Of a stretch of DNA of 64,000 nucleotides, positions 1,881-64,000 are shown piece by piece; positions within the stretch are counted from its first letter, which is position 1; each line of letters starts with the position of its first letter. This stretch comes from an uncultured Bdellovibrionales bacterium (GTDB taxonomy: Bacteria > Patescibacteriota > Minisyncoccia > Moranbacterales > DUUL01). The notes under the pieces are model-generated. The model did not search any database. It saw only the letters and a program-made list of their open reading frames with translations, and was not told where the DNA came from. The translations under genes and the position numbers were made by a program. The DNA lies in contig CAYQVD010000004.1 in assembly GCA_964421125.1 (NCBI GenBank), positions 930 through 64,929 on the forward strand, given 5' to 3'.

Positions 1881-2666
1881 TTACTCTTCCTCTAAAGACA
1901 AAGGATTTTTCGGTAAACTTTCCCAAAGTAAATCAAAAGTCAGTCTTTGAAGATCCACCAACTCTTTTGACTCAACAACAACTGCCATTTTTTCTTCCCA
2001 AGATGCAATCAGCATCTTGTTATTATAAATATTAATCTCTGGAGAAAAACTCATTTTATCTTCCGGTAAAAACCTTGTATCTCTCATTTCTTCTTGATTA
2101 CGTTTTGCTGTTTCAACAGAAAGCTTATTCTGTGGAATAATTGCTTTAATAAAAATCTTCTTTCCAGCTCTCCTTTTAAAATATTCCGGGAAAAATCCAG
2201 GTAATCCCTTATTCATCGTTTCTACATTAGCATAAGCCAAAATAATGTCTTTTGAAATTAATGTGTCTTCATATGCCTCTCTCATCCCCTTTTCTCCTTC
2301 AAAGAACTGAACTTTAGGCTTATTGGCTGAATAGATATTTTGTAAAGAAATCAACTGTGGCATCAATTCTGTCACTTTTTCTTTTTGTTTTTCTATTTTT
2401 TTAACACTTTCTTCTTTTTCCCTATCTAAATAGGTTACTAAATGTTTTGGATCAAGCGCATTAAAAAAAGTTGATGCGCCTTTTTTATACTTACTAATCA
2501 ACCCTCTCTGCAAAAGAGCATCACAAATATCATAGATAGTAGTCCTATTTAAGCCCGTTTTCCTTGATAAATCCTTAGCTTTCGCCGATCCTAACTCAAC
2601 TAAGCCCAAATAAACTTGGGTTTCTTTTTCTGAAAAATTAAGTTGTTTTAATAGTTTTTCTAGCAT
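1881..2666 (-). CDS. TrmB-like winged-HTH transcriptional regulator (paralog 1 of 6 in the window)
   Basis: The N-terminus ETQVYLGLVELGSAKAKDLSRKTGLNRTTIYDICDALLQRGLI matches the TrmB wHTH. The C-terminal domain is shared with the ORFs at 42634, 48558, 55687 and 63395. Confidence 0.7.
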   Translation of the reverse strand: MLEKLLKQLNFSEKETQVYLGLVELGSAKAKDLSRKTGLNRTTIYDICDALLQRGLISKYKKGASTFFNALDPKHLVTYLDREKEESVKKIEKQKEKVTELMPQLISLQNIYSANKPKVQFFEGEKGMREAYEDTLISKDIILAYANVETMNKGLPGFFPEYFKRRAGKKIFIKAIIPQNKLSVETAKRNQEEMRDTRFLPEDKMSFSPEINIYNNKMLIASWEEKMAVVVESKELVDLQRLTFDLLWESLPKNPLSLEEE

Positions 2667-2678
2667 ATTCTATTAATT

Positions 2679-2933
2679 TTACCCAATTAAATAAGCTTTG
2701 AGTCTCTTTTTGATAAACATCGTCCCGTGATAAGTTTTTAAATACTTTTCACGACGTGTAGCATCTTGTTGATTTAAACAGGCTTCATAATAAATCAATT
2801 TTAAAGGTCTTCTGTTTTTTGTAGAGTTAACTTCTCCTTTCACGTGCAACTCAAATCTTAATTTTAAATTTCTAGTATATCCAATATATCTTTTTCCATC
2901 TTTCTTACTTAAAAGTACATATACATAATACAT
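2679..2933 (-). CDS. GIY-YIG nuclease-family small protein
   Basis: 84 aa starting MYYVYVLLSKKDGKRYIGYTRNLKLRFELH, which matches GIY..YIG.T.NL..R...H. Confidence 0.75.
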   Translation of the reverse strand: MYYVYVLLSKKDGKRYIGYTRNLKLRFELHVKGEVNSTKNRRPLKLIYYEACLNQQDATRREKYLKTYHGTMFIKKRLKAYLIG

Positions 2934-3070
2934 ACCAGGGGGAATTTAAAATTATTTAATCGGGTGTTGTGGATATTACTTCGACAAAATAAGTATATTA
3001 AATAAAGGCTTAATTGTCAATTTTATTCACTTAATCAATGCACCCTCCGACATAATTTTACAATTTAGTA

Positions 3071-3107
3071 TATACTAATTTATTACGATGAAATAGTTTC
3101 ATTGTAA
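3071..3107 (+). promoter_or_regulatory. Putative -10 element (TATACT, 3071-3076) followed by the 25-bp near-perfect palindrome TTACGATGAAATAGTTTCATTGTAA (3083-3107). Candidate operator or leader hairpin for the 3145 cassette
   Basis: The palindrome is seen directly. Nearly the same 40 nt recur at 43571-43610. A related GTTAC-N17-GTAAC motif occurs at 56603-56629 and 8702-8728. Confidence 0.45.
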
Positions 3108-3144
3108 TGATAAACAAACAAGTTCTTTAAAAAAGGAGAAAACA

Positions 3145-3837
3145 ATGAATATTCTCATTATCGAAGATAACGAAAATCATATTGAAGATGCAAAAGCAAT
3201 TTTTGGCGAAAACATTGAAATTGCAAAAAACTTGGATGAAGCATGGGAAAAGTTAAGAAAAAATGAATACGATGGAGTAATTTCCGATATATTCTTCTCA
3301 AAGGGAGAATGTAAATCAATTTTTTCTGATGAACACCCAGATTTTGACATCATCACAAGCATGCAATGCCAATATATCCTTGCTGGATATGGAGCAGAAA
3401 ATGATTATGCATTGGGCGCAGATGCTGACGCAAGAGAGTGGTGGATAAAAGTTCTCAGGGAAGTTGAAAAGTGGAATGGATTCAGTGGATATGAACTTCC
3501 TCCAGCAGGGGTCTTGGTTCTCAATCACTGTATCAAACACAACATCCCGATCGTGATGAACACAGACATCAAACATCATGGCTTATCAATTGCTCCAGTT
3601 GAAAGATTATGCATAAACCTCCAAATCCCCGTTATTTGCGAATACGAAGGGAAAAAGCAGTGGAAAGAAGCTCTTGAATATCTCAAAGAAGAACTTCATC
3701 CAGATACAGAAACCATTGCTCACCGCCAAAAACGCCGATCAGAGAAATATGAAACCAAAAATTCTTACAATGGAGGAATTAGAATGAACATATTAAGACA
3801 CCTAATAGAAAGAGAGAAAGAAATTGATTTCTCCTAA
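3145..3837 (+). CDS. Receiver (CheY-like) domain protein with a C-terminal extension; orphan, no kinase nearby
   Basis: MNILIIEDNENH..., ...YDGVISDIFF (Asp-pocket position), ...IPIVMNTD. There is an RBS AAGGAGAA upstream. Confidence 0.6.
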   Translation: MNILIIEDNENHIEDAKAIFGENIEIAKNLDEAWEKLRKNEYDGVISDIFFSKGECKSIFSDEHPDFDIITSMQCQYILAGYGAENDYALGADADAREWWIKVLREVEKWNGFSGYELPPAGVLVLNHCIKHNIPIVMNTDIKHHGLSIAPVERLCINLQIPVICEYEGKKQWKEALEYLKEELHPDTETIAHRQKRRSEKYETKNSYNGGIRMNILRHLIEREKEIDFS

Positions 3838-3838
3838 A

Positions 3839-3961
3839 CATCCGGGAAGTTGCAAAACATTGCGACTTCCCAATTCTCTCGGCTTTATTTGAATTGTTCA
3901 AGCGAGCCCGAGTAGAATTAAAGAATGTACTTTAAAAACTGAATATATAAAGGAGATAGAA
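3839..3961 (+). repeat. Intercistronic structured repeat copy R1 (~110 nt): hairpin GGGAAGTTGC..GCGACTTCCC, then a CTCGG..CCGAG stem, then A-rich spacer and RBS
   Basis: About 108 nt are nearly identical to 4313-4420. A diverged copy with compensatory stem changes lies at 57058-57181. Confidence 0.7.
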
Positions 3962-4303
3962 ATGACTAATGGAACTTTATTATTAGTAAGTGACAAAGAA
4001 AAAGAAATTGCAATTAACGAATTATTAGACTGCGTCGGTAAAATTACAACTGCTAAAAACAAGTTCCGTGCGCAGGAACTTCTTGAAAAAAATAATTTCA
4101 GTTTAGTAATAACTGGAAATGAAGAGTGGATGATTCGTATCGCCGGAAAAGCACTAGATCGAGAAACTCCTAAAATCATTGTATTTGAAAAATCGAAGAC
4201 TTGGCTGGGAGGATCCATTTTAGGTAAAACAGCAGGGATAGGAAAAATTCTTTGTAAAGAAAAAATGAGTTACAAAGAAGCATTGGAATTATTTCCTAAA
4301 TAA
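3962..4303 (+). CDS. Small pseudo-receiver-like protein (113 aa), hypothetical
   Basis: TLLLVSDKEKE...FSLVITGNEEW...PKIIVFEKSK resembles the receiver fold but lacks the phospho-acceptor Asp. The ORF is flanked by R1 and R2. Confidence 0.5.
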   Translation: MTNGTLLLVSDKEKEIAINELLDCVGKITTAKNKFRAQELLEKNNFSLVITGNEEWMIRIAGKALDRETPKIIVFEKSKTWLGGSILGKTAGIGKILCKEKMSYKEALELFPK

Positions 4304-4312: not shown

Positions 4313-4431
4313 CCGGGAAGTTGCAAAACATTGCGACTTCCCAATTCTCTCGGCTTTATTTGAATTGTTCAAGCGAGCCCGAGTAGAATTAAAGAATGTA
4401 CTTTAAAAACTGAATATATAAGGAGTGGGAA
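4313..4431 (+). repeat. Intercistronic structured repeat copy R2; followed only by an 8-codon ORF remnant (MKYIRLSL*)
   Basis: Direct repeat of R1, including the RBS and start-codon context. Confidence 0.7.
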
Positions 4432-5049: not shown

Positions 5050-5331
5050 CTATATCTTCAAATCCGAATATTCTCGCAGAGTTTTTAGTGTCGCTTGCAC
5101 TGTCTCGTTTTCCGCGTTTAAAAGTTTTACGTTTTTGAATTTTTCGGCAATTTTTGTGATCACTTCATCTGCCCAAGATGGAGCAATGACTTTTACACCA
5201 GAAAAATCAATTTCAATTTCTTCGTCTTCTTTGAGATCTTTTAAATTATAAGCAGAGATTGCCAAAAATGCCTCTCTTCCAGCCGGACGAGAGACTAAGA
5301 CGTCACCAATTTTTTTAAGTTCAATTCTCAT
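5050..5331 (-). CDS. STAS-like (DUF4325-type) small protein; putative anti-sigma-antagonist-like partner
   Basis: 93 aa; ...VLVSRPAGREAFLAISAY...IEIDFSGVKVIAPSWADEVI... resembles STAS/DUF4325. It sits 4 bp downstream of the GHKL ATPase gene. Confidence 0.5.
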   Translation of the reverse strand: MRIELKKIGDVLVSRPAGREAFLAISAYNLKDLKEDEEIEIDFSGVKVIAPSWADEVITKIAEKFKNVKLLNAENETVQATLKTLREYSDLKI

Positions 5332-5335
5332 AAAA

Positions 5336-5938
5336 TTATAAAGTTATTATTGCTAAGCATCCTTCAATATTTTCCGCATTTTTTTCTATTTTCATTTGAT
5401 CATTAAGCTCCGCTCTAGCAGTTCCACTAAAAAAGTTTAAATGCATTTTTTTGTTTTTTATATTTTCCCTTACAAATTTTAAGCCATTGCCACGTTTTTC
5501 TGGTGCTCGTCCGGAAATTCTTTCTGTAAAAGCAACTTTCAATGCCTCTTGGTCATTTTCTATTTCCGATTTTACTTTTTTAAGCGTGCTAAAAATTCCC
5601 TGACCTCTATCAGCTAAAATTATTTCCACTTTATCCTCAGAAAAAAAATAACTAAAAAATATTCCAGGAATATCTTTCCAGTTTCCGATATTATGATCAA
5701 AAGAATTATTGGCAATTTCACCAACCACAGCAGAAACAATTGAAGCATCCTCTTCTCTTTTTTCAAAAAGATTCTTAATCATTTGATTGAACCTTACCTC
5801 AAAAACATCTCTTGTAGAACAGTAAAATTCACCAACAACATTAATCTTACCAGCCTCAGCCATTATCCATTCATAAGCTACTTTTTCTTGTGAATTTTCC
5901 ATACTTTGATTATAAACTATCCGAAAACTAAAAGTCAA
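5336..5938 (-). CDS. GHKL-family ATPase (HATPase_c), anti-sigma regulatory factor / Ser-protein-kinase-like
   Basis: N-box-like GEIANNSFDHN and G1-box ADRGQGI; 200 aa. Confidence 0.6.
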   Translation of the reverse strand: MTFSFRIVYNQSMENSQEKVAYEWIMAEAGKINVVGEFYCSTRDVFEVRFNQMIKNLFEKREEDASIVSAVVGEIANNSFDHNIGNWKDIPGIFFSYFFSEDKVEIILADRGQGIFSTLKKVKSEIENDQEALKVAFTERISGRAPEKRGNGLKFVRENIKNKKMHLNFFSGTARAELNDQMKIEKNAENIEGCLAIITL

Positions 5939-7516: not shown

Positions 7517-8548
7517 TTATAACTCTTCCTCCTTATTATCAACATCCTCCTTTTTAACAGACAAAAGATCTGGATATTCAATCGCCATTTGAGTAAACTT
7601 ATCTATTTGATAAACCTCGTTCACTTCAACTTGAAAAATAATATCATTAAAATCATGTTTCATCTGATTTATCAACCCTCTTAACGCTTTTCGATCCTTA
7701 ATTTCAATATCCAACATAAGTTGCCAATTCCCCATCACTTTCACATAATTAACAATATTTGGATGTTTCACACAAAATTGATACAAAGACTCCACTTTTT
7801 CTTTGTTAAATTGTTTTATCTTAAATAAAACTCGAAACATTCTTAATCCAATAGATTGATAGTTTAAAGTAAATGTTGTTTTTGTAATAATTCCCTTTTT
7901 AATCATTTTTGTATAACTCCTATGAACAACCCCTGTTGTCACGCCCAAAACCTTTGCCATTTCTGAAAACTCCATTCTCCCATCAATTTGAAGAAGTGAA
8001 ATAATTTTTTGATCTAATTCTGACAGTTTCACTACCTTTTTAAATCCCCCTGAAACACTAACGCTTTCTTCTTCGTTTTCTTTATTAAGAAAATACGATC
8101 GAGGAAATTTCAAAAATCCCAATCCAACCACAATCTCACTCATTGTGATGTATTTACCAAATTCACCAAAAACCTCTTGAAGAATTTTATTGTGACTAAA
8201 AACATCTTGGGCAATGATTGCAATAAAAGCATCTGCATAGCCATCACATCGAAAAATAATTGGGATATACTTATTTTCTTTTAATTTCAAAAACATCGCA
8301 TCTTGTTGATCTTTAGTGAGACCACTAAATTTCAACCAATATCCCCAAAAAAATGAATATCCCACTCGATCATAATCAATAAAAGCCCAAAAATGCTTAA
8401 TAACCTCTTCATCCCTAAATCTTGCCATATGATACTTTACTACTTGTGGAGAAGTTTTAATATTTCTAGCTATTTTTGAATAACTAGCTCTTCCATCTTT
8501 TTCAAGCTCAAATAGTATTTTTTTGTCTAAATCTGTTAATTTAACCAT
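7517..8548 (-). CDS. Tandem-duplicated Lrp/AsnC-type wHTH regulator (two HTH_AsnC-like modules in one 343-aa protein)
   Basis: The first module LDKKILFELEKDGRASYSKIARNIKTSPQVVKYHMARF is repeated as LDQKIISLLQIDGRMEFSEMAKVLGVTTGVVHRSYTKM. Confidence 0.55.
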   Translation of the reverse strand: MVKLTDLDKKILFELEKDGRASYSKIARNIKTSPQVVKYHMARFRDEEVIKHFWAFIDYDRVGYSFFWGYWLKFSGLTKDQQDAMFLKLKENKYIPIIFRCDGYADAFIAIIAQDVFSHNKILQEVFGEFGKYITMSEIVVGLGFLKFPRSYFLNKENEEESVSVSGGFKKVVKLSELDQKIISLLQIDGRMEFSEMAKVLGVTTGVVHRSYTKMIKKGIITKTTFTLNYQSIGLRMFRVLFKIKQFNKEKVESLYQFCVKHPNIVNYVKVMGNWQLMLDIEIKDRKALRGLINQMKHDFNDIIFQVEVNEVYQIDKFTQMAIEYPDLLSVKKEDVDNKEEEL

Positions 8549-8701
8549 TTTTCGATATTAATTTCACTAAATTTACAAAAATAACTGTTTTTAAAAACTT
8601 ATTATTTTTAAATAATTCTATTTTAATAACATCTTACACTACTTTTTAAAACTAATCAACAAAACTATTGAAATATTATCTATTCTATGCTATTATATCT
8701 C

Positions 8702-8728
8702 GTTACGATAAAATAGGTTCAAAGTAAC
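8702..8728 (+). promoter_or_regulatory. GTTACGATAAAATAGGTTCAAAGTAAC leader palindrome (family of 3083, 43586, 56603) upstream of the ORF at 8773
   Basis: GTTAC-N17-GTAAC preceded by TATTATAT; the downstream GAAAATTGAATAAAAGGAGAGGGAAATG is also conserved with the 43658 leader. Confidence 0.45.
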
Positions 8729-8772
8729 AACTTAAAGGAAGTTCATTGAAAATTGAATAAAAGGAGAGGGAA

Positions 8773-9153
8773 ATGAAAAAAAGAAATGAGTTATTAAAAT
8801 CCTTGGATAAAATTAATGGTGGAAGCGACTGGAAAGACATGCAATTTGAATTCTACTGCTTTTGGTCTAATAACCATACGTCCTCGGTCCCTCCTGGACA
8901 CATAGACACAAAAGAAGAAAATTTATTGAGAAATTTTGGTTTTGACCTAAATGCTCGTTTTATCTTCCATGTCAATTATGTAAGTTATGGTAGCATGGGA
9001 CATGAAAATTACACAGTTGCTCATATTGTCAGAAACGCGATTCTTGATCCAGAATATGACATGGAACAATTCCGAGAAGAATACACCAAAGGGAGTGATG
9101 GTTATACTTATTGTTCTACCTTCTCCATAACCATAAATCCTAAAACTTCTTAA
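8773..9153 (+). CDS. Hypothetical protein (126 aa)
   Basis: Strong RBS GGAGAGGG and the conserved leader; no recognisable domain. Confidence 0.5.
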   Translation: MKKRNELLKSLDKINGGSDWKDMQFEFYCFWSNNHTSSVPPGHIDTKEENLLRNFGFDLNARFIFHVNYVSYGSMGHENYTVAHIVRNAILDPEYDMEQFREEYTKGSDGYTYCSTFSITINPKTS

Positions 9154-9650: not shown

Positions 9651-10340
9651 TTAATTGAAACTAAAATTAATTAATATTTTATTTACAATATTAATATCCC
9701 AAAAAACATCAGAGGAAAAATAATCAATTCTACAAACCCCTTTGTAATCTTTCTTTTTTGATGGTTTTCCAATTGTGCGGGGATCAATTTGAACCTTGTA
9801 AAATTGTTCAAAAGAAATCTGGGTTATCTCTTGCCAAAATTTTTCTAACCCTAAGACATCTTGATTAAATCTACATTGTAATGTACACCTAAATTTTGAT
9901 TCGTCAATCTTATAACAATATCTTAAAAGTTTCAAGAATAATTTAATAATGTCTGGATTTGAATTTCCAAAAACCAATGCCCCATTCTCTCTTTTTCCTC
10001 CCTCACCTAAATATAAAACCGCTAAAGCAATTTTAGCAACATCAAAGTCTTTTATTTTAATATCTACTTGCTTATTTTTAAAGAAAAGTGAGTTTAAATA
10101 ATCCTGTTTCTTTTTTCTTTTTGAAATAATTGATTTTTTTCTAGCCTTCTTTAAATTCTTATTTACAATTAATCTTACTTTTTCCTTATAAAAAACAGGT
10201 AACACTAAGCCTTTGCACCAAGTTGACATCGTGCTTTTTGGTATCTCAATCCCAATACTTTTTTTTATTTCTGAATAAGTTAATCCTTTTTTTCTGAAAC
10301 TTATTATCTTTTCTTTAATTTCTTTTGTGTATTTTTTCAT
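9651..10340 (-). CDS. HTH-containing protein with a LAGLIDADG-like motif (LAVLYLGEGG); possible free-standing homing-endonuclease-like or DNA-binding protein
   Basis: N-terminal KIISFRKKGLTYSEIKKSIGI is HTH-like; LAVLYLGEGGKRENG resembles a single LAGLIDADG motif with an acidic Glu. The gene lies directly beside the palindrome array. Confidence 0.4.
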   Translation of the reverse strand: MKKYTKEIKEKIISFRKKGLTYSEIKKSIGIEIPKSTMSTWCKGLVLPVFYKEKVRLIVNKNLKKARKKSIISKRKKKQDYLNSLFFKNKQVDIKIKDFDVAKIALAVLYLGEGGKRENGALVFGNSNPDIIKLFLKLLRYCYKIDESKFRCTLQCRFNQDVLGLEKFWQEITQISFEQFYKVQIDPRTIGKPSKKKDYKGVCRIDYFSSDVFWDINIVNKILINFSFN

Positions 10341-10496
10341 ATATTTATTTGTATTTATATTAATAATCGTACCATACAGTTATTACATGTGTCAACTTTT
10401 GTTCGAACTATTTTTATCACAAGCACCTTCATTGGTCAATTTATTATGCAATGTATATTGTATTATGTCAAGACCACTAATTTCCTCTCTTTAAAT

Positions 10497-11045
10497 TGTT
10501 TCACGTGAAACATTCTGAAATATAAAAATCCTCTTATTAAGGCCTTCAAAAATTAACAAATTTTTAAATTTTCCCTTTTTGTTTCACGTGAAACAATCTG
10601 AAATGTAAAAGCCTTAATAATAGGGGTTTTATAAATTAACAAACTTTTGAAACGCATGAAAATGTTTCACGTGAAACATTCTGAAATGGAAAAGCCTTAA
10701 TAATAGGGTATTGTAAATTAATAAACTTTTAAAGTATCCCTTTTTGTTTCACGTGAAACATTTCTTAGTTTTTAATTGCTGTTTTTTAATCTAAATTGTT
10801 TCACGTGAAACATTTTATAACGTTAAACATAAATAAAGATCCTTTCTTAAATGATCCTTTTTGTTTCACGTGAAACATTCTGAAAAAACCAAATAAAACC
10901 AACTAGCTATAAAGACCATGAGATAAGCATATCCAAAAGTTATCAAATTTTAAAAGGATTATAATTGTTTCACGTGAAACATTTTAATAATAACCTACTT
11001 GACAATTTCACCTCCCTTAAATGCTATAATGTTTCACGTGAAACA
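10497..11045. repeat. Array of 8 copies of the perfect 16-bp palindrome TGTTTCACGTGAAACA (at 10497, 10580, 10663, 10745, 10797, 10862, 10966, 11030); the first four sit in ~83-bp tandem units
   Basis: Every copy is identical. Flanking sequence is partly conserved between units: CCTTTTTGTTTCACGTGAAACATTCTGAAAT.GAAAAGCCTTAATAATAGGG..TAAATTAACAAAC. Confidence 0.9.
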
Positions 11046-11214
11046 TTTTGACTATATTAATATCTCTACCCCTTGACATAATTATATATTCGTGTTTTAA
11101 ATAATTTATTAGTCCTTTTCTACGTAATTTTACAAAGTCCCCCAATATTAACAAATGTATGCATTTGCTTAAAAAATAACTCTGTAGTTTCAGCCTATGG
11201 TTGATCACCCGAAA

Positions 11215-11260
11215 ACAAAAGTTATCCACACCCTCCACAGGATATCCACAAGTTCTGAAC
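11215..11260 (+). promoter_or_regulatory. DnaA boxes upstream of dnaA (GTTATCCACAC, GATATCCACAAG), probably within the dnaA promoter region
   Basis: Matches to TTATCCACA about 100 bp before the dnaA start. Confidence 0.6.
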
Positions 11261-11351
11261 ACTTACCTTGTTGCTTAGTTGTAGATAATAATATAAGATA
11301 TATAAATCAATTACTTAGGGGGTAATTTTTTTATTGTAAATACAAAAAGTT

Positions 11352-12761
11352 ATGACCCATGACGAATTTTGGCAGGCAGTTCTTGGAGAAATAGAGCTTT
11401 CCTTGTCAAAAGCAAGTTTCACAACTTGGTTTAAAAATACTTCAGTTAATCAAATCGGCGACTCCGAGTTTGTTTTGAATGTTCCAAATATTTTTGCTAA
11501 AGAATGGTTAGAAAAAAAATATCGAAAAAATATTCTGGATTCTGTTCAAAAATTTTACCCCAAAGTAACAAAGTTTTCTTGTTTAATCTCTGATAGTCAG
11601 GATTCTTCTCGAAGCATTGACTCTATTGTAAACTTAAAAACAAATCAGTCTCAACAACAAACAAATGCTTCTTCACAGCCACAACGAAATAAACTTAACA
11701 AACCTTCTTCAAAGCCTTTTGGAGGATTTTCTGTTAATAGTAACCTTAACAATCGATATGGCTTTAATTCTTTTGTAATTGGTTCCAATAATGAACTCGC
11801 TTATGCCGCTTGTCGATCAGTCGCGGAAAATCCAGGAAAAAATTATAATCCACTTTTTGTTTATGGGGGAGTAGGACTAGGAAAAACGCATCTTCTTCAA
11901 TCAACAGGGAGTGAGATTCTTCAAAATTTTCCTAATAAAAAAGTGAAGTATATTAGCATGGAAAGATTTGCTAATGAGCTTGTTACTGCAATTCAAACAT
12001 CAAAAGCTAAGAATTTTAAAAATGAATACATTCAACTCGACGTATTAATTATTGATGATGTTCAATTTCTTTCTAATAAAGAAAAGACTCAGGAAGAGTT
12101 TTTTCATGTATTCGAATCATTATATCAACTAGAAAAACAGATAATTATCAGTTCTGATCGACCACCAAAATCAATTCCAACCCTTGAAGATAGACTTCGT
12201 TCAAGATTTGAGGGAGGGATGATGGCTGATATTAGTAAGCCTGATTTAGAAACAAGAATGGCAATTATTAAAAAGAAATTGGCAGAAAAGAATTTCAAGC
12301 TAGACGAGGATATTATTATTTATTTAGCTGAAAATATCTATCATAACGTTCGAGAACTCGAAGGAGCTCTAAATAAAATAATTGTAACCTATCAACTAAA
12401 AAATTATCCTCCATCTCTTGAAAAAATAATGGGTCAAACAGAAGATGTTATATCAACTAATCGACAAAAAGATTTAAGCCCAGATAAAATTATCTGTTCT
12501 GTTGCAGAATTTTTTGATGTTAAAAAAGAAGAAATAATAGGTCGTTGCAGAAAAAAGAAAATTATTAAACCAAGACAACTTGCAATATACCTATTAAGGA
12601 CTGAATTAAACCTTTCTTTTCCTGAAATAGGGAAGGCAGTTGGTGGTCGAGATCACTCAACTGCTATTTATGCTTGTGGAAAAATTGAAAAAGAATTGGA
12701 GGGTAATAAAATTATGGAAGATCATTTAAAATTTATTAAGGAAAAATTTGTAGATTTTTAA
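11352..12761 (+). CDS. dnaA: Chromosomal replication initiator protein DnaA
   Basis: N-terminus WQAVLGEIELSLSKASFTTWFKNT, Walker A GGVGLGKTHLLQ, and the C-terminal DNA-binding region KPRQLAIYLLRTELNLSFPEIGKAVGGRDHSTAIYA. Confidence 0.95.
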   Translation: MTHDEFWQAVLGEIELSLSKASFTTWFKNTSVNQIGDSEFVLNVPNIFAKEWLEKKYRKNILDSVQKFYPKVTKFSCLISDSQDSSRSIDSIVNLKTNQSQQQTNASSQPQRNKLNKPSSKPFGGFSVNSNLNNRYGFNSFVIGSNNELAYAACRSVAENPGKNYNPLFVYGGVGLGKTHLLQSTGSEILQNFPNKKVKYISMERFANELVTAIQTSKAKNFKNEYIQLDVLIIDDVQFLSNKEKTQEEFFHVFESLYQLEKQIIISSDRPPKSIPTLEDRLRSRFEGGMMADISKPDLETRMAIIKKKLAEKNFKLDEDIIIYLAENIYHNVRELEGALNKIIVTYQLKNYPPSLEKIMGQTEDVISTNRQKDLSPDKIICSVAEFFDVKKEEIIGRCRKKKIIKPRQLAIYLLRTELNLSFPEIGKAVGGRDHSTAIYACGKIEKELEGNKIMEDHLKFIKEKFVDF

Positions 12762-12936
12762 TTTTTACGAAATACGAATTATTATTGCGATTTTAGAGAA
12801 TTATCAACAAGAGGACGTCTTAGTGGTTATACTAGAAGTTTTACTTAAATAGATGCCAGGAGGAATGGGGTTTATTTTAAATAAAATATAACTTAATTAA
12901 TAAATAACTTTAACAAATTAATTAATATAAAAATTT

Positions 12937-13521
12937 ATGAACAAAGAAACACCACAACAAGAAACTATTAAAGGTCAAAAAGAAGTCTCAATAGAAAACC
13001 AGGAAAAGATAGATTTAAAATGGAATATAGTAAATAACCCTAACTCTACTGAGGAATATCTTGAAGACATCACTGATTCTAATAAACAACTTGAACGGTA
13101 CCAAGAAAGAGGGAACGGATTTAGACATCTCAGTATTTTTAAAGAAAATATTAATCAGGGAGAAATGATAAAGGAAGTGCTTAATGAAAATGGTGATAAG
13201 GATAAGTTTAATGAGGTTGATGAAAATTTACAAAATTATAAAGAAAAACTAAAAGAGACAGTTGATATAATTGCAAAAAAATGGGAAGACGATTTAAATA
13301 TGGGGCGATTAATGATTTTAGAAGAATTATATACAACTTTAGAGGATAATAAAGAAGCACAAAAATTTAAAGAAATGTTTGAAGAAAAAAGGAGACCAAA
13401 GGATTTAGTTAAAAATGAGGATGTGGTAGATAAAAAACCAAAACTGATTGATTATTCAGCCCAAGAACAAGAGGATAAACAGCAGACAGAAGAAATAAAA
13501 AAGAAGATAGATGAATTATAA
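12937..13521 (+). CDS. Acidic, Lys/Glu-rich hypothetical protein inserted between dnaA and dnaN
   Basis: 194 aa, low complexity, predicted coiled coil. Confidence 0.5.
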   Translation: MNKETPQQETIKGQKEVSIENQEKIDLKWNIVNNPNSTEEYLEDITDSNKQLERYQERGNGFRHLSIFKENINQGEMIKEVLNENGDKDKFNEVDENLQNYKEKLKETVDIIAKKWEDDLNMGRLMILEELYTTLEDNKEAQKFKEMFEEKRRPKDLVKNEDVVDKKPKLIDYSAQEQEDKQQTEEIKKKIDEL

Positions 13522-13589
13522 CTTATTAAATTTATAATTTAATATCCTGTTAACAACCTGTGAATTAGATGTTAAGGATGTTAATTAAA

Positions 13590-13796
13590 ATGTTAATAAG
13601 TTATCCAAAAACTACTCTACTTTACTATTAATAAGTTATCAACATTAATATTTAATACTTTTAAACTTTTTTATCCCCAAGTTTTAATGCTAATTATATT
13701 TATAAATAAAGGATTTTTATAACTTATTAACATAAAAGTTTATAGTAGTAATAATAGTATTTAATAATATATATAATTTATATAACTATACACACC
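13590..13796 (+). promoter_or_regulatory. Putative oriC core: DnaA-box-like sites (TTATCCAAA, TTATCAACA, TTATCCCCA) followed by an extremely AT-rich unwinding element just upstream of dnaN
   Basis: The boxes lie at about 13597, 13627 and 13671. Positions 13680-13795 are more than 85% A+T, and the region sits in the canonical dnaA-dnaN position. Confidence 0.55.
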
Positions 13797-22057: not shown

Positions 22058-22063
22058 AAATAT

Positions 22064-51092: not shown

Positions 51093-51253
51093 CTAAATTA
51101 TTGTGGAGCAGAAATAGCTGTTTAAAGAGTTTCAGTAGCAGTTGATTCGCGCCGTATGGGTGGGCAATTTTCTTTTTCAGCACCATTAAAAAATCAAAGT
51201 TCATTTAAATAGGCTAATGTTAAGCGGGCCTGTCCGCCGAAGCGTAGCGAAAG

Positions 51254-52546: not shown

Positions 52547-52611
52547 AGTATCTTCTCCTATTATTAAATGTTTTTTCAAGGAACTAACTGTATGCAATAT
52601 AGTATGTAGAA

Positions 52612-52649
52612 TTGACAAGAATGTAAAAAAATGTACAATTTATGTACAT
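52612..52649 (+). promoter_or_regulatory. Promoter (TTGACA, 16-bp spacer, TACAAT) overlapped by the inverted repeat ATGTACA-N5-TGTACAT (candidate autoregulatory operator); it implies a near-leaderless mRNA for the 52650 ORF
   Basis: Spacing counted directly; the palindrome spans 52631-52649. Confidence 0.5.
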
Positions 52650-53336
52650 ATGAAAAAGAATCAATTAAAATCTAGTGAATATCTTGTCTTAACTTCAACT
52701 GAAGAAAAAATCGTTTTTCTTTTGGAATCACAACATAAAAAAATGTCAATTTCAGAAATTTCAAAAGAAGTTCAGCTTGCTCGATCTAGCATTTATCGAT
52801 CAATAAGGTCATTGATTAATAAAGAAGTTGTAATAAAAGAACAATTTAAATATTTTTTGACTTTGGATGGTTTAGTGCAAAGTAAGAAATATGTCTTTAA
52901 AGAAAAGATAGAGGATCTTTTGAAAGAAATGCTTAGTTTAAAAAAAGGAGAAATTATTTATTCAATAGAATCTGATGAGGAAATAGAATATCTTTTTAAA
53001 AAAGAGAAGGGTCTTTTAAATTGGCAAAAAAATATTGCCGATAAAGGTATAGTTCTCAAGGGAATAGGAAGTATTAGGGCGTTGTCTTTTTTTAGAAGTA
53101 TTCAGAGTAAAAATTTAAATGCTCAAATAAAAAGAAGAAGCGGTTCTGCGAGATTTATAGTTGAAACTCTCTCTGGCCCTTGTATATTAGTTTCTTTTCG
53201 AAGTTCAATTATATTTTTTTCAAGAAAAAATAAATATTTTTATCGTATAGATGATATTAATGTTTCACGATTTATACAAATTGTTATTGAGACGCTTTAT
53301 TTAAATCTTCAGTATGAACCATTAGTTATTAATTAG
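52650..53336 (+). CDS. TrmB-like wHTH regulator (paralog 6, plus strand), divergent from the radical SAM gene
   Basis: SSEYLVLTSTEEKIVFLLESQHKKMSISEISKEVQLARSSIYRSIRSLINKEVV. Confidence 0.55.
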   Translation: MKKNQLKSSEYLVLTSTEEKIVFLLESQHKKMSISEISKEVQLARSSIYRSIRSLINKEVVIKEQFKYFLTLDGLVQSKKYVFKEKIEDLLKEMLSLKKGEIIYSIESDEEIEYLFKKEKGLLNWQKNIADKGIVLKGIGSIRALSFFRSIQSKNLNAQIKRRSGSARFIVETLSGPCILVSFRSSIIFFSRKNKYFYRIDDINVSRFIQIVIETLYLNLQYEPLVIN

Positions 53337-56430: not shown

Positions 56431-56602
56431 GTTTTTGTTGTTAAAACATTAAAATGTCGTAAAAATATGACAACATTTATATTATATCATAATCACCATA
56501 AAAGTCAATTAAATAGGGCATTATTCAAAAGTTTAGAAACTTTTAAAACAGTCATAAGTCGTAAACGATTGACAAATACTTAAAATTGTGATATATTATA
56601 TT

Positions 56603-56629
56603 GTTACGATGAAGTTGTTTCAAAGTAAC
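56603..56629 (+). promoter_or_regulatory. GTTACGATGAAGTTGTTTCAAAGTAAC leader palindrome preceded by TATATTATAT
   Basis: Same GTTAC-N17-GTAAC architecture as 8702-8728 and related to 3083-3107. Confidence 0.45.
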
Positions 56630-56652
56630 AAGTAAAAAAAGTTCTTTAAATT

Positions 56653-57057
56653 ATGAAAAGGAGAGGGAAAATGTCAGAAGAAAAAAGAATGAAATTAACG
56701 GTGCCTGGTTGTCATAAGACTGAAATGATTACACACAGTCCAGTTTCCGAGAGTGTCTATAATTGGGGAGGTGGGTTTATTATTAAAACTTATGCAAAAA
56801 CTTCCTTTGGATCGGAAACTCTTAACGAGCAATTTTCGATTCTCTCTGACATGGTTATAGAAAATTCAAAAACTGGTGATTGTGAGGGCTGTGTCTGCAA
56901 TAATGATCAATGCAAAAGGTTACCGGGGCTTATTGATGCCGTTGTTAAAAATTTCTCTGGGACAGCTTGGTTTATAGACGTAACTAAGAAAAAAATTGTA
57001 AAAGTTGAAAATCGTGAGGAGGCGATCAATATTATGAGAAAAGTTGAGAAAAGTTAA
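56653..57057 (+). CDS. Hypothetical Cys-containing small protein (134 aa)
   Basis: RBS GGAGAGGG; no recognisable domain. Confidence 0.5.
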   Translation: MKRRGKMSEEKRMKLTVPGCHKTEMITHSPVSESVYNWGGGFIIKTYAKTSFGSETLNEQFSILSDMVIENSKTGDCEGCVCNNDQCKRLPGLIDAVVKNFSGTAWFIDVTKKKIVKVENREEAINIMRKVEKS

Positions 57058-57181
57058 AAAATCGGGAAGCTCTGCTTAATAAGCACCTTCCCAATTCTCT
57101 CGGGGTTATTTGAGTGGTTTAAATAGCTCCGAGTAGAGTTAAAGTTATTTGAAATTGAATATAAAAAAAAGGAGAAAGAAA
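57058..57181 (+). repeat. Intercistronic structured repeat copy R3 (diverged; GGGAAGCTCTGC..GCACCTTCCC hairpin, CTCGG..CCGAG stem, TTAAAG, RBS)
   Basis: About 70% identical to R1 and R2, with compensatory substitutions in both stems. Confidence 0.65.
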
Positions 57182-57593
57182 ATGAAACATAGATTAATGA
57201 TAGTGGAAGATCAATTAATTAATATGATTTGTGCATTAACTGCTTTTACTGAGATGATTGATATTGAGGTGGGCGATGTGCAAGGGACTGTTTTGGGTGC
57301 ATTGAAGATGATTGACGAGTTTTGTCCAATGATGGTCCTTAAATTCTATTCCAAATCTTAATGGCGGAGGGAGTGGAACTGAAATCGGAGAAGTTTTGAA
57401 AGCAAAAAATATCCCGTTTCTTTATGTGACAGGGGTTGGACCAAATCCGAGTCATGACTGTATTAACGCAGTCGAAATTCAAGATTCTGACTTCAAAACT
57501 CTTGAGAGATTTGAATGTGTTGATAAGAATCCTGAAATTTGGCAAAAGGGTTTTGAAATTTTAAAGGAAAGAATCAGAAGGGAGATTGAATAA
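57182..57593 (+). pseudogene. Receiver-like domain gene apparently disrupted by a +1 frameshift between 57333 and 57358 (alternatively two small ORFs)
   Basis: Frame A gives MKHRLMIVEDQLIN...DEFCPMMVL then stops; frame B continues ...NGGGSGTEIGEVLKAKNIPFLYVTGVG...KGFEILKERIRREIE, which is receiver-like (IPFLYVTG is close to the usual IPVIMLTA). Confidence 0.4.
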
Positions 57594-57697: not shown

Positions 57698-58825
57698 ATG
57701 GATAAATTTTTTAATAAAATTTTCAATAAGCCATCAAGTAAGATTGAGAAAGAAAAAGAAGAGGAGTTAAAGCTCAATCTTCTTATCTTTGATGATTCAG
57801 ATGATCAGGAGTATGCTTTTCATTTAGATTTTCAATTCAATGATAATGATGATTTTAAGACAAAGGCTGAAGTGGCAAGTAATGTTGATGAAATAATAAA
57901 AAAAGCGGAACAGGAGGAGTTAGATATTATTTTTATTTCAAATCCGGATTCGATAAATGAAAACTTGTTTAAGGGAATTGTAAAAATGAGAAATGATGTG
58001 AACGTGAAAAAGCAACCAATCGTTTTTATTATGACTAGTGATAAAAATAGAAGTGAAGTGGAGAGAATACAAAAGTATGCTACAGATATAATTGAATTGC
58101 CTCCATATATAAATCTTGAAAAACTTCCTAGTCAAATTAATTCTGTTCCAGGACTACTTGGATGGGTTGATGATGAATATGGTGAAAAGATGACAAGGAA
58201 TAAGATTTCTTTTTATAAGGAATATAAGGACAAGTTGATGGAGCGATCTGATTTTACAGCGGATACAGAAAAAGAGTTGGAAATTTTAGAAGAAATTTTT
58301 GAAAAAAATAATGTTAAAAAAGTTTTAGATGCTGGTGGTGGGGAAGGGAGAATTGCCGTTCCTCTAAGTGAGAATGATTATGAAGTAGTGAACATTGATT
58401 CTTCACAAAAACTTATTGAAAAGATGAATGAATCTCAAAGTGAAGTGATTGGAACGGTTGGTGATTTGAAAAAAATACCAATAGAAGCCGAAAGCCAAGA
58501 CGCGGTTACTTATAACTGGCATGTTTTTTGTGATATTCTGGGAAACAAAGGGAAGGAGGAAACGTTAGATGAAGCTCATCGTGTGCTTAAGAGTGGAGGT
58601 GTTATTGTTCTTGATATTCCAAATAGAGAAGGAGGGTCTTATGAGAAAGATGGGGTTTATGTTCAAAATCCTGGTGGAGAAAATATTTTCATTGGATATA
58701 CTCCAGGGGAAGATGAGATGAAAAAATATTTAGAAAATTCAAAATTTCAAGATATAGAAATTAAAAAATGGGAAACCAAAACTGGTTTCAAAAAAATTAC
58801 CTTTATCGCGAAAAAGATAGATTAA
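57698..58825 (+). CDS. Receiver-like N-terminal domain fused to a class I SAM-dependent methyltransferase
   Basis: LLIFDDSDD...LDIIFIS...PIVFIMTSDKN (receiver-like); VLDAGGGEGRIAV and VLKSGGVIVLD (methyltransferase motifs I and post-II). Confidence 0.65.
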   Translation: MDKFFNKIFNKPSSKIEKEKEEELKLNLLIFDDSDDQEYAFHLDFQFNDNDDFKTKAEVASNVDEIIKKAEQEELDIIFISNPDSINENLFKGIVKMRNDVNVKKQPIVFIMTSDKNRSEVERIQKYATDIIELPPYINLEKLPSQINSVPGLLGWVDDEYGEKMTRNKISFYKEYKDKLMERSDFTADTEKELEILEEIFEKNNVKKVLDAGGGEGRIAVPLSENDYEVVNIDSSQKLIEKMNESQSEVIGTVGDLKKIPIEAESQDAVTYNWHVFCDILGNKGKEETLDEAHRVLKSGGVIVLDIPNREGGSYEKDGVYVQNPGGENIFIGYTPGEDEMKKYLENSKFQDIEIKKWETKTGFKKITFIAKKID

Positions 58826-62151: not shown

Positions 62152-62157
62152 CATAAT

Positions 62158-62187
62158 TAAAACAGGCGATTTGCGCCTGTTTTTTGT
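62158..62187 (+). terminator. Rho-independent terminator after tRNA-Leu
   Basis: AACAGGCG ATTTG CGCCTGTT followed by TTTTG. Confidence 0.75.
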
Positions 62188-62228
62188 TATTTTCTTAGAT
62201 TCTATTCCAAATCTTAATTAAATAAAAA

Positions 62229-62822
62229 TTAATTTAAGATTTTTTCTTTCTCAATCAATTTCAGAACTCTAGGAATTTTTTTGAAATCCTTTAGTAGAGT
62301 TTCACGGAGATTACCGTTGTAAAGGGCGGCAGCGGGGTGATAGCAAGGGAAGAAGACAATTTTTTTGAGTGGAGGAAAAGGTTTTCGGAAAGCTCGGCCG
62401 TGAGCTTCGGAAATTCTTGCATTAGGTAGAAATATTTCAAGACTGTGGCGTCCAAGTGGAATGATTATTTTTGGTTGGATTATTTCTAGTTGTTTTTCAA
62501 GCCAAGGCCAACAAGCTTCTTTTTCTTTTGGGAGTGGATCACGATTATTAGGGGGACGACATTTTACGGTGTTAGCGATATAAATGTCTTCACGTTTAAG
62601 ATTAATTGAGGCGATTAATTCATCAAGAAATTTTCCAGCTGCACCAACAAAAGGGTGTCCAGTTTCATCTTCTTTTTTGCCAGGTCCTTCACCAATAAAC
62701 ATAATTTCAGCTGAAGCAGACCCTTCTCCTGGGACAACTTGATTGCAAGTTTTTCTTAAATCACATTGATTGCAAGTGGCCATTTGTTTGTTTAATTTTT
62801 CGAGTTGTTCTTTTTTGGTCAT
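62229..62822 (-). CDS. Family 4 uracil-DNA glycosylase (Fe-S type)
   Basis: ...CNQCDLRKTCNQVVPGEGSASAEIMFIGEGPGKKED...HPFVG. Confidence 0.8.
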   Translation of the reverse strand: MTKKEQLEKLNKQMATCNQCDLRKTCNQVVPGEGSASAEIMFIGEGPGKKEDETGHPFVGAAGKFLDELIASINLKREDIYIANTVKCRPPNNRDPLPKEKEACWPWLEKQLEIIQPKIIIPLGRHSLEIFLPNARISEAHGRAFRKPFPPLKKIVFFPCYHPAAALYNGNLRETLLKDFKKIPRVLKLIEKEKILN

Positions 62823-62884
62823 AATTATTACAATTTTATAATTTTTAATTTTATAAATAAATCTAAAATCTAAATTTTTAAATA

Positions 62885-63388
62885 TTAACTAAGATCGTCT
62901 ACTCTAATTAAACTAAATTTATTATTACTTGTTTCCCACACCGCAAAAGTTGGTAAGTAAATTTCTCCAGCAAGAGTTCCGGGGTTGAGCATTTTGCATT
63001 TTCCAAAATGTTGTTCCCACGGTTGATGAGTATGCCCATAGAAAACAAAAGAATATTTTCCGCTTTTAGCGAGTTTTCTGGCAATTTCAGGGAAGTGAAC
63101 GAATGCAATCTTTTTACCATCAATTTCAGTTTCACCAAACTTTTTATAAATAAAAGTATTTTTATATTTTTTTTGTGATTCAAGATTTCGCAAGTCGTCA
63201 TAGTCGGCATTACCAAAAGTGTAGTGAATGTCACCGGAAAAATTGTCATTCATAACATCCATCATTTCGAGTGATGCCATGTCTCCACAATGAATGATTG
63301 TTTCAATTTTTTCTTCCTTGCAGTAATTTAAAAATTTTCTAAGATTTTTTTCATTGCCGTGAGAATCAGATATAATTGCTATTTTCAT
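62885..63388 (-). CDS. YfcE-like metallophosphoesterase
   Basis: MKIAIISDSHGN..., ...IHCGDM..., ...GHTHQP. Confidence 0.75.
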   Translation of the reverse strand: MKIAIISDSHGNEKNLRKFLNYCKEEKIETIIHCGDMASLEMMDVMNDNFSGDIHYTFGNADYDDLRNLESQKKYKNTFIYKKFGETEIDGKKIAFVHFPEIARKLAKSGKYSFVFYGHTHQPWEQHFGKCKMLNPGTLAGEIYLPTFAVWETSNNKFSLIRVDDLS

Positions 63389-63394
63389 TGAGGT

Positions 63395-64000
63395 TTATGA
63401 TTTCTTACTTTGTTTCCATAGAATTTTAAAAATATTTTTCATCATTTCACTGTGTTCCGGGCTTTCAATTAAAAGTCCGAAATTTTCTTTTTCTGATGAT
63501 ATGTAGAATGTATTGTTATCATATATTATAAATGATTGGGAAAAATTAGCATCATTTTTGTTAGTATAGCGTAATTTTCGGAGTTGTTTATTATGTTTTG
63601 AAAAAACTTTATCTTCTTGGCTTGTTTGCGAACTTAGTCGGATGGTTTTAGTTTCAATTTTTTGATTAATTCTTTTAGAAACATAATCTTTAACAAAATC
63701 TATTCCCAGAATATTATAGAACTTCTTACTTGCCACAACTGCTAAAATTTCTTTTTTTTGGCATTTTAAAGAATCTAGTAATATATTTCTAATCCCTTCT
63801 TTATCGTCAATAAATTTTATATTTGGGACACTTTCACTTTTATTATTAAGTGCGTTTATTTCAGGAATGGCCATTTTTAAATATTTCTTTTTTTTGTCAA
63901 TATTTCTTTTTTGTCGTTCAAGAAACTTTTCAAGATTTTCCGGTTCTTCCATGACAAAGCGTTGATTGTATTTGCTTCCTGCGGTATGAACTAGCCCCTT
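63395..64000 (-). CDS. TrmB-like regulator (paralog 5); the N-terminal wHTH runs off the window end
   Basis: The reading frame stays open upstream of the Met at 63952 (...KGLVHTAGSKYNQRFVMEEPENLEKF...); the C-terminal domain aligns with the other paralogs. Confidence 0.6.
   Translation of the reverse strand, partial: KGLVHTAGSKYNQRFVMEEPENLEKFLERQKRNIDKKKKYLKMAIPEINALNNKSESVPNIKFIDDKEGIRNILLDSLKCQKKEILAVVASKKFYNILGIDFVKDYVSKRINQKIETKTIRLSSQTSQEDKVFSKHNKQLRKLRYTNKNDANFSQSFIIYDNNTFYISSEKENFGLLIESPEHSEMMKNIFKILWKQSKKS

Follow-up and report, generated by a model that had tools for sequence, protein, structure and literature searches.

Introduction

In the regulator TrmB most of the contacts with the sugar are made by the C-terminal subdomain of the effector domain, and the known operators of the TrmB family are short palindromes with spacers of 3-8 nt. 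Almost nothing is known about gene regulation in the Patescibacteria, or candidate phyla radiation (CPR), and here we describe a 64-kb stretch of DNA (the window, which means this whole stretch) in which five genes, called R1-R5, encode TrmB-type winged helix-turn-helix (wHTH) proteins, accompanied by two repeated non-coding elements, a promoter-leader (leader-1) and an intercistronic element (IE), that precede small genes of other kinds (the cargo). The closest structural relative of these proteins is TrmBL2, which is both a chromosomal protein and a global repressor and has homologs conserved in some bacteria (PMC3031468). R1-R5 differ from it in being numerous and divergent, and on balance we find it probable that they are site-specific, autoregulated local regulators.

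The paralogs and their fold

All six coordinate pairs that an initial annotation of the window had assigned to TrmB-like paralogs are open reading frames (ORFs; Table 1). Five of them align with one another over their full length (BLASTP E 1e-15 to 1e-65, 25-42% identity), which bears out the claim of a shared C-terminal domain, and the motifs quoted for that domain are present, R2 carrying KIRYFEGLTGVKEVFEDTL and R3 carrying EINIY...IGIIIEGAEI. R1-R4 match Pfam TrmB (PF01978) at E 1e-11 to 1e-15, with 43-56 bits against a cut-off of 25.6, and R5, which has no wHTH because the gene is cut off by the window end, matches the family profile with an hhalign probability of 99.2% (E 2e-19). The sixth gene, R6, passes the same Pfam cut-off narrowly (28.7 bits), and its match to the family profile (hhalign, 45% probability) covers residues 18-117 only, that is, the winged helix and linker; as a full-length paralog it is ruled out, with BLASTP to R1-R5 at E >= 0.37. 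Because the BLASTP matches of R6 are non-significant and its profile match is confined to this part, the family in the window is, on these alignments, five paralogs plus one protein sharing only the DNA-binding fold. The count of six was right for R1-R5 and one too many for R6; tblastn found no family copies in the window beyond R1-R5. A radical-SAM-like gene (51413-52618) stands head-to-head with R6.

The regulators had also been described as lying head-to-head with short operons, a layout that is seen for R2, R3 and R4, and for R1 only by way of a GIY-YIG domain gene that lies 12 nt upstream of R1, between it and the divergent intergenic region, and is probably co-transcribed with it; the upstream side of R5 falls past the window.

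The AlphaFold model of R2, built on 48 homologs, has a mean predicted local distance difference test score of 89.4 and shows residues 1-70 as a winged helix, 74-101 as a long helix and 106-242 as an alpha/beta domain, the latter two extending to R1-R5 through homology to R2, but not to R6. Residues R155/R163, E224-S225 and W240 (numbered as in R2) are invariant in the C-terminal domain. Foldseek against the PDB places TrmBL2 (5bpd) first among full-length matches of the model (E 3.9e-14, 270 columns), TrmB (3qph) being matched at E 8e-11, and a sequence profile of the paralogs likewise retrieves TrmBL2 and TrmB first (TrmBL2 at E 3.3e-7). On the sugar-binding domain of TrmB (2f5t) the C-terminal domain of R2 aligns over 149 columns with a root-mean-square deviation of 4.6 (Foldseek), and judged from the model this domain of R1-R5 is the first half of the TrmB effector domain, with the sugar-binding second half absent. 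The complete copies are accordingly short, at 247-262 amino acids (aa) against 335-342 aa in TrmB, a difference of ~80-90 residues. Sugar sensing by R1-R5 is unlikely because the missing subdomain is the one that makes most sugar contacts in TrmB. An assignment to TrmB/TrmBL1 was also rejected, the NCBIfam models giving 27-47 bits against cut-offs of 600-650 and the C-terminal sugar-binding subdomain being absent.

Age, spread and density of the family

Orthologs of R2 with 45-84% identity occur on contigs labelled Moranbacteria, Wolfebacteria and Falkowbacteria, an R1 ortholog at 80% identity is found in locus L036 and an R3 ortholog at 64% in locus L032. R2 has 401 homologs among the matches listed, including exact copies on public metagenomic contigs as long as 96.7 kb, and its named relatives belong to the Patescibacteria throughout (Moranbacteria/Moraniibacteriota, Wolfebacteria, Falkowbacteria, Parcubacteria), those closest to the window being Moranbacteria. 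A neighbour-joining tree of 44 family members places the window copies among those of other genomes, with R2 inside a clade of 13 orthologs and R5 as a deep branch. Orthologs of R1-R3 elsewhere are 64-84% identical to them, as against 25-42% among R1-R5 themselves; on this comparison the five paralogs are of ancient origin, older than the split of several CPR lineages, and belong to a large branch of the TrmB family in bacteria.

The family comprises 16,871 clusters (50% identity) at E <= 1e-3 and 2,592 at E <= 1e-30, nearly all members being ~245 residues long, and appears to be the dominant transcription-factor family of CPR genomes; at least one member lies outside the CPR, in a Paraburkholderia genome (30% identity). 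Two proteins, P0178 (549 aa) and P0192 (1061 aa), contain 3-7 matched stretches each and are either tandem copies fused into one or the product of gene calling that ran through a tandem array.

Density was compared with 20 loci centred on R2 homologs in other genomes, and is therefore conditional on one copy being present. These loci hold 14 extra paralogs in 333 kb, or one per 24 kb; nine of them contain two to four copies, relatives carry 2-4 copies per 20 kb, each Wolfebacteria- and Falkowbacteria-labelled locus has a second copy within 6 kb, and the 12.9-kb locus L036 holds three full-length copies together with another wHTH gene. With four extra copies in 63 kb, one per 16 kb, the window is not exceptional (Poisson P for at least four extras ~0.27), and five copies in 64 kb is the normal density for the clade. 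The lineage-specific expansion proposed by the initial annotation is contradicted by the cross-lineage orthologs, the interspersed tree and this ordinary density alike.

Promoters and palindromes of the regulator genes

Upstream of R2, R3 and R4 a promoter is followed by a palindrome in the leader (Table 1). When the upstream regions of 16 R2-clade genes are aligned, the promoter ATATTGACA-17-TATACT is conserved, with a palindrome within a few bases of it whose sequence depends on the lineage: in the window and its relatives it reads AACGACG..CGTT, Wolfebacteria have GTGACGG..CGTCAC, and a further group has ATGACAT..ATATCAT. In an ungapped alignment of 18 sequences (alignments A7 and A8) 81% of cells are paired, compared with 22-47% in most slid registers, and at one pair seven sequences have A-T in place of G-C. 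Paralogs of other clades have similar GACG/CGTC or direct TTGACGA repeats upstream, and the own-leader palindromes differ between clades. Strict GACG..CGTC palindromes were rejected as a window-wide regulon signal, since three sites against 0.9 expected are non-significant alone. The AT-rich leaders of TrmB-family genes in relatives also contain GC-rich hairpin insertions of the GTCATTCCCGC...GCGGGAATGAC type (Table 1), which may be small mobile palindromic elements.

These palindromes bear on how far the likeness to TrmBL2 should be carried over to function. If R1-R5 were TrmBL2-like, abundant nucleoid-associated proteins or silencers of low specificity, acting on AT-rich orphan genes, then the rank of TrmBL2 as best full-length structural match, the missing sugar-binding subdomain, the description of TrmBL2 as chromosomal protein and global repressor alike, with conservation in some bacteria (PMC3031468), and the orphan nature of the neighbouring cargo genes would all fit. 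We hold this to be improbable, as many divergent paralogs with conserved orthologs of their own form the pattern of specific regulators, the regulators' own promoters carry conserved palindromes, and the NCBIfam equivalog for TrmBL2 (NF041141) gives only 15-30 bits against a cut-off of 530, a result that also gives no support to R1-R5 as TrmBL2 orthologs.

A shared leader before unrelated genes

The regions upstream of four plus-strand ORFs, starting at 3145, 8773, 43658 and 56653, have ~95 nt in common (alignments A4 and A5). This leader-1 runs from a TTGACA-like box, 17 nt and a TATACT-like box through TTACGATGAARTWG and AGTTCNTTGAA to the strong ribosome-binding site AAGGAGAGGG and the start codon; TTACGATGAARTWG begins ~6 nt after the -10 box and opens a hairpin that contains TTACGA and sits at the predicted transcript start, and AGTTCNTTGAA follows 22-24 nt beyond it. 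A 25-nt degenerate pattern of the leader has exactly four sites in the window against 0.00 expected, and since the same leader recurs beside TrmB paralogs in independent metagenomic contigs, the shared leader palindromes proposed earlier are borne out. Copy C is conserved in the ortholog locus L007 of the closest relative. The 5' arm often reads ATG-AAA-TAG/TAA, a Met-Lys-stop mini-ORF a few bases from the predicted transcript start (3090-3098, 43593-43601, L007 and L016), which is longer or absent in other copies.

The cargo proteins behind the four leaders show no similarity to one another, no Pfam domain was found at threshold in any of their ORFs, and the product of 3145 has no relative besides itself among 5.8e9 proteins, while the product of 43658 has a 65% ortholog in the closest relative only. 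Translation of cargo 56653 probably begins at the ATG at 56671, which follows the conserved GGAGAGGG. The PADLOC defence-system models match neither regulators nor cargo, and only the wHTH resembles that of Csa3/CasR. In two related loci (L027 2565-3896 and L038 879-1368, motif-oriented coordinates) the leader-1 cargo of ~175 aa ends in a Cys-rich CLIC and is followed by a B12-binding radical SAM enzyme, an arrangement that hints at a peptide-modification cassette.

All four leader-1 copies are divergent from a wHTH gene, namely the R1 operon, R2, R4 and, for copy B, a double Lrp/AsnC-type regulator (7517-8548), in which HTH_24 and HTH_AsnC-type each match two stretches and which has 54-57% orthologs in Wolfebacteria loci. 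Because only ~7 of 62 genes in the window are wHTH genes, the chance of adjacency in four of four cases is ~1.6e-4. A metagenome scan with the leader-1 pattern alone, using no protein information, gave 13 matches, six of them with the full promoter layout, and in each of the five among these that include upstream sequence a TrmB paralog lies 124-140 nt off on the opposite strand; these paralogs come from more than one clade, and the cargo ORFs, as in the window, are unrelated. With nhmmer, weaker copies came to light in seven further genomes (four with E < 0.01), always 124 nt upstream of an R2 ortholog, and others beside an R3 ortholog and beside a paralog in locus L024.

A mere coincidence of numerous TrmB-family genes with repeated intergenic sequences that have nothing to do with them would be in keeping with how common the family is in relatives and with the several other repeated intergenic elements of the genome. 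Such a lack of any functional link is nevertheless very improbable given the four-of-four adjacency, the TrmB paralog beside every evaluable copy of the unbiased pattern scan, and the fixed position at -124 nt in seven more genomes. The near identity of leader-1 beside the R1, R2 and R4 clades and the Lrp-type gene argues, at the level of sequence, against simple private pairs of regulator and operator; the pairing of this kind that had been proposed finds no support, the same leader standing beside three paralog clades and a non-TrmB regulator.

The intercistronic element

In loci A (R1) and D (R4), named after their leader-1 copies, a second element follows the first cargo ORF and precedes a small ORF, so that both loci have the same modular layout of leader-1, ORF, IE and receiver-like ORF. 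The IE consists of a GGGAAG..CTTCCC hairpin, then AATTCTCTCGG..CCGAGTAGA and a ribosome-binding site, and a 17-mer from it occurs three times against 0.13 expected. Copies 1 and 2 form a perfect 109-nt direct repeat that brackets the ORF 3962-4303; the degenerate mini-ORFs that alone follow copy 2 point either to a recent tandem duplication or to a cargo gene that was lost.

How the elements may act

Both elements could act at the level of RNA, through stability, translation or a shared RNA-binding factor, in which case the TrmB paralogs would not read leader-1 or the IE, and their adjacency would reflect a co-inherited bidirectional promoter. We regard this as a serious possibility, although the less probable one. 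The leader-1 hairpin lies at the predicted +1, its 3' arm varies with pairing kept, G-U pairs included, the stem is laid out differently in one lineage, and the conserved block continues to the ribosome-binding site; the same leader serves beside different regulator clades and the Lrp-type gene, and the structure of the IE hairpin is retained where its sequence differs. What speaks against an action at this level is that covariation is weak, that two window copies of leader-1 do not fold more stably than shuffled sequence (z -0.5 and -0.7), that the 5' arm is conserved in sequence and not merely in pairing, that the constant wHTH partner is left unexplained, and that neither leader-1 nor the IE has an Rfam match (for Rfam 15, none at gathering score, and sensitive scans gave chance-level matches only).

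In the reading that we prefer, of R1-R5 as local, autoregulated regulators, each regulator gene has a near-consensus promoter of the sigma-70 type with a GACG/CGTC-type palindrome ~5-30 nt past the -10 box, and a dimer on this palindrome would block the regulator's own transcription. The gene would be inherited together with a bidirectional promoter block, of which leader-1 would form the far side; three of the five regulators and the double-Lrp/AsnC regulator are coupled head-to-head to it. Leader-1 precedes unrelated, fast-evolving small genes, which it would drive, and two loci add the IE and then a receiver-domain gene; the adjacent regulator would control the bidirectional promoter region, and the shared leader would add a common layer of control. 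The analysis establishes the paralogy, the fold, the age and density of the family, the conservation of the cis-elements and their position beside regulator genes, whereas we infer DNA binding at the named sites, repression and any effector. The TTACGA half-site-like sequence within the hairpin and the constant adjacency speak for leader-1 being read by the adjacent regulator.

A number of points weigh against this reading. The near-identical leader-1 beside different clades fits better with a shared trans factor or an element acting as RNA, and its arm spacing changes between lineages (N13 vs N21) with pairing kept, a behaviour that suits an RNA hairpin better than a dimer site; the consensus fold from RNAalifold is itself weak, at -2.06 kcal/mol with one compensatory pair. 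As to the regulators' own leaders, the palindrome is called terminator-like and is followed by a T-rich run, so that it could be an attenuator hairpin instead of an operator, which makes attenuation a live alternative. In the R2 clade the slid register -3 also pairs 71% of cells, the exact register being uncertain, and the covariation may stem from a single event. The enrichment of GACG/CGTC-type words, which speaks for the reading (two or more within 70 nt upstream in 40% of 43 family genes, as against 3% of 30 controls; Fisher P 2.4e-4), comes from a post hoc test with non-independent orthologs and controls from the window only; the operators, assigned after the sequences had been viewed, are candidate sites only. 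Finally, TrmBL2, their nearest relative in structure, is for the most part a non-specific chromatin protein.

Table 1. Coordinates of the regulators, their cis-elements, cargo and neighbouring features in the 64-kb window, and of hairpin insertions in related loci
Feature	Position	Strand	Details
R1, TrmB-family regulator, 261 aa	1881-2666	-	Pfam TrmB E 2.9e-15; BLASTP to R2-R5 E 1e-15 to 1e-40
R2, TrmB-family regulator, 262 aa	42634-43422	-	Pfam TrmB E 3.6e-15; protein chosen for modelling
R3, TrmB-family regulator, 250 aa	48558-49310	-	Pfam TrmB; BLASTP to paralogs
R4, TrmB-family regulator, 247 aa	55687-56430	-	Pfam TrmB E 2.6e-15; 42% identity to R3
R5, TrmB-family paralog	63395-64000	-	N-terminus past window end; hhalign 99.2%
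R6, wHTH protein of TrmB type only	52650-53336	+	Weak Pfam TrmB match; C-terminal domain match not detected
GIY-YIG domain gene	2679-2933	-	Pfam GIY-YIG E 2.2e-15; between R1 and divergent intergenic region
Double Lrp/AsnC-type wHTH regulator, 343 aa	7517-8548	-	HTH_24 E 8e-22; HTH_AsnC-type E 2e-20
R2 promoter	43491 to 43463	-	TAGACA-17-TATACT; promoter scan
R2 leader palindrome	43436-43459	-	AATAACG-N10-CGTTATT
R3 leader palindrome	49333-49350	-	TGACGA-N6-TCGTCA (perfect); just after TTGACA/TATAAT promoter
R4 promoter	56508 to 56481	-	TTGACT-16-TATAAT
R4 leader palindrome	~56452-56478	-	AAATGTTGT-N9-ACGACATTT
Leader-1 copy A	3046-3138, core 3083-3107	+	nhmmer E 2.8e-13; RNA fold z -4.0
Leader-1 copy B	8665-8757, core 8703-8727	+	nhmmer E 7.9e-16
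Leader-1 copy C	43548-43640, core 43586-43610	+	nhmmer E 8.4e-17; promoter TTGCCA-17-TATACT 43551-43579
Leader-1 copy D	56566-56656, core 56604-56628	+	nhmmer E 1.3e-15; promoter TTGACA-17-TATATT 56569-56597
Cargo ORF, 230 aa, orphan	3145-3837	+	Behind copy A
Cargo ORF, 126 aa, without known domain	8773-9153	+	Behind copy B
Cargo ORF, 186 aa, without known domain	43658-44218	+	Behind copy C
Cargo ORF, without known domain	56653-57057	+	Behind copy D
IE copy 1	3842-3950	+	109 nt, 100% identical to copy 2
IE copy 2	4313-4421	+	Only degenerate mini-ORFs after
IE copy 3	57066-57180	+	Diverged, hairpin retained
Small ORF, 113 aa	3962-4303	+	Behind IE copy 1
Single-domain receiver gene	57182-57593	+	Frameshift near 57340; repaired translation matches SdrG 5ieb (E 2e-6) and PhyR receivers
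Receiver domain (residues ~25-152) fused to class I SAM methyltransferase	57698-58825	+	Pfam methyltransferase matches
Downstream of R1, same strand			tRNA-Met, MFS transporter
Downstream of R2, same strand			DUF4446, IF-2
Downstream of R3, same strand	47010-48539	-	ComM/YifB-like ATPase, 18-nt gap
Downstream of R4, same strand			Matrixin-like protease
Downstream of R5, same strand	62885-63388; 62229-62822	-	YfcE-like phosphoesterase (6-nt gap), then uracil-DNA glycosylase (UDG)
GC-rich hairpin insertions in related loci	L007 2560-2795; L018 ~9965-10100; upstream of L012 4162
dnaA	11352-12761
dnaN	13797-14945
PrgI-family protein	23120-23521	+	In type IV secretion-like cluster
VirB4/TraG-like ATPase	24235-26085	+	In type IV secretion-like cluster

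Receiver domains and neighbouring genes

Four of the small neighbouring genes had been called receiver-like, a description that stands for two of them. The segments 57182-57361 and 57396-57593 read as one gene once the frameshift is repaired, and its product has Asn at the phospho-acceptor position (VLNSIPNL); the frameshift could be due to a pseudogene, an assembly error or recoding. The product of 57698 has full-length homologs at 42-65% identity with a conserved N-terminal stretch of 165 residues, and a profile of this stretch from 10 homologs matches the REC domain 3n53 (E 3.7e-4), then Spo0A and CheY, almost exclusively receivers; the acidic pocket, the phospho-acceptor Asp and the Thr/Ser position are kept (alignment A9), while the conserved Lys is absent. 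Going by these matches, the 57182 product and the N-terminus of 57698 are real, divergent receiver domains. The first ~50 residues of the 3145 product are marginally receiver-like (Pfam Response_reg E 0.007 over residues 3-49; PDB E 0.23), and 3962 has no Pfam or NCBIfam match, a single-sequence AlphaFold2 model of it reaching a score of 39.5, too low to be of use. The statement that the window has no histidine kinase agrees with our scan, in which none of ~60 ORFs reached the Pfam thresholds for HisKA and HATPase_c; the only caveat is a weak GHKL-like protein of 200 aa at 5336-5938 (HATPase_c_2 E 0.095), which forms a minus-strand gene pair (5050-5938) near locus A with a STAS-like DUF4325 gene (E 4.8e-11). 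This pair may be a partner-switching-type module.

The co-directional genes downstream of R1-R5 are mutually unrelated and of housekeeping type. The neighbourhood of R2 is kept in the closest relative, L007, and is replaced by entirely different neighbours on Wolfebacteria- and Falkowbacteria-labelled contigs, and the order paralog-phosphoesterase-UDG seen at R5 is also present in L024 and recurs only partly. Fixed downstream cassettes are thereby ruled out, synteny being confined to close relatives, and the idea that each paralog is paired with its own cassette is not supported. Around R2, DUF4446 and IF-2 lie three minus-strand copies of another element of 95-145 nt (cores 42577-42602, 41870-41895 and 39726-39751), in which an internal sequence, UGAACGUAAUGAUAU ... 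AAAUUCAGUGAAAA, is conserved and closing terminal stems of 20-27 bp vary in sequence among copies with pairing kept; with fold z-scores of -5.7, -7.9 and -1.4 it looks like a structured RNA of C/D-box or k-turn flavour, and it has no Rfam match at gathering score.

The receiver domains in two divergent operons, the kinase not found in the window ORFs scanned and the common layout of loci A and D might be explained by a recent, lineage-specific expansion of a one-component system, each copy with its own cassette and with orphan receivers in place of kinases. This scenario is quite improbable: the paralogs are older than the divergence of several CPR lineages, which contradicts both 'recent' and 'lineage-specific', their density is ordinary, their neighbours are conserved in close relatives only, and the shared leader is found beside more than one regulator.

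Genomic setting of the window

The window has a G+C content of ~31% and is, judged from its genes, a segment of a patescibacterial chromosome that spans the replication origin, because dnaA, dnaN and a DciA-like gene coincide with a change in the sign of the GC skew near 12 kb. The origin region (10341-14945) opens with a 1-kb intergenic stretch upstream of dnaA, with dnaN and the DciA-like gene after it; in the right replichore, all of R2-R5 are found on the lagging-strand side. A type IV secretion-like cluster on the plus strand (17866-31876) includes bacterial TSP3 repeats and a 1298-aa ORF without known domain. At 50783-51099 (+) the anticodon loop of a tRNA gene is interrupted by a group I intron (Rfam RF00028, 87.9 bits, 50805-51044); its exons point to tRNA-Phe(GAA), and ARAGORN did not report this intron-split tRNA. 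Two Wzy-type ligases, LysM-CHAP and 3D-domain wall enzymes, IF-2, MetRS and a CCA-adding enzyme are among the other genes, and this remaining content fits a CPR origin.

Significance

The cluster of regulators that drew attention to this window is the normal state of CPR genomes and not a recent local expansion, and the cis-regulatory architecture that the initial annotation had flagged is real, conserved across genomes and directly testable. For the CPR field it provides a family with a confident structural model and candidate operators at defined coordinates, a promoter-leader module that marks orphan genes across genomes, and orphan receivers for which no kinase was found. No published link of TrmB or its COG to the CPR/Patescibacteria was found among 7.7 million open papers and 0.34 million preprints, a recent review of patescibacterial biology does not mention transcription factors, and for the prominence of the family in the CPR and for the leader/IE arrangement before orphan genes we found no description in the literature searched.

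A bolder proposal, rather unlikely in our estimate, would be a clade-wide module of the Patescibacteria, in which members of a superfamily with TrmBL2 architecture each come with a bidirectional block and a leader-1/IE 'expression platform' for orphan genes of fast turnover, possibly host-interaction factors and pseudo-receivers. If it were true, the non-coding elements would be more constrained than the genes that they drive, and leader-1 and the IE could be both a common control point and sites of cargo exchange.

Comparison with known systems

The proteins described here are new members of a known family, and the divergent layout of regulator and target is familiar. Closest to them is TrmBL2 of the Thermococcales (TK0471/PF0496; 5box, 5bpd, 5bpi, 5bqt), which falls into the same length class (~250-265 aa), has the same three-part build of TrmB-type wHTH, long helix and single alpha/beta domain, and likewise lacks the sugar-binding C-terminal subdomain. 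It differs in that its identity to R1-R5 is only 16-18% and that it is archaeal whereas they are bacterial, in being a single abundant chromatin protein and global repressor where many divergent paralogs occur per genome here, and in that each of these paralogs has its own conserved promoter palindrome. With TrmB and TrmBL1 (3qph, 2f5t) R1-R4 share the wHTH of Pfam PF01978, but R1-R5 have no adjoining sugar-metabolism genes. The GACG..CGTC elements have the same form as TrmB-family operators, with short half-sites and a spacer of 5-10 nt.

Orphan response regulators of the SdrG, PhyR and CheY kind are resembled by the 57182 product in its sequence match and by 57698 in its acidic pocket and Asp; the differences are the Asn and frameshift of 57182, the missing Lys and methyltransferase fusion in the 57698 family, and the kinase not found in 64 kb. 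In its layout the system is most reminiscent of divergent, autoregulated wHTH repressors of the MarR/IclR type, in which the regulator also stands head-to-head with its putative target and palindromes overlap the -10 box of both promoters or lie just past it; what sets the present loci apart is another protein family with another C-terminal domain, and a target-side leader that is common to several loci and regulator clades.

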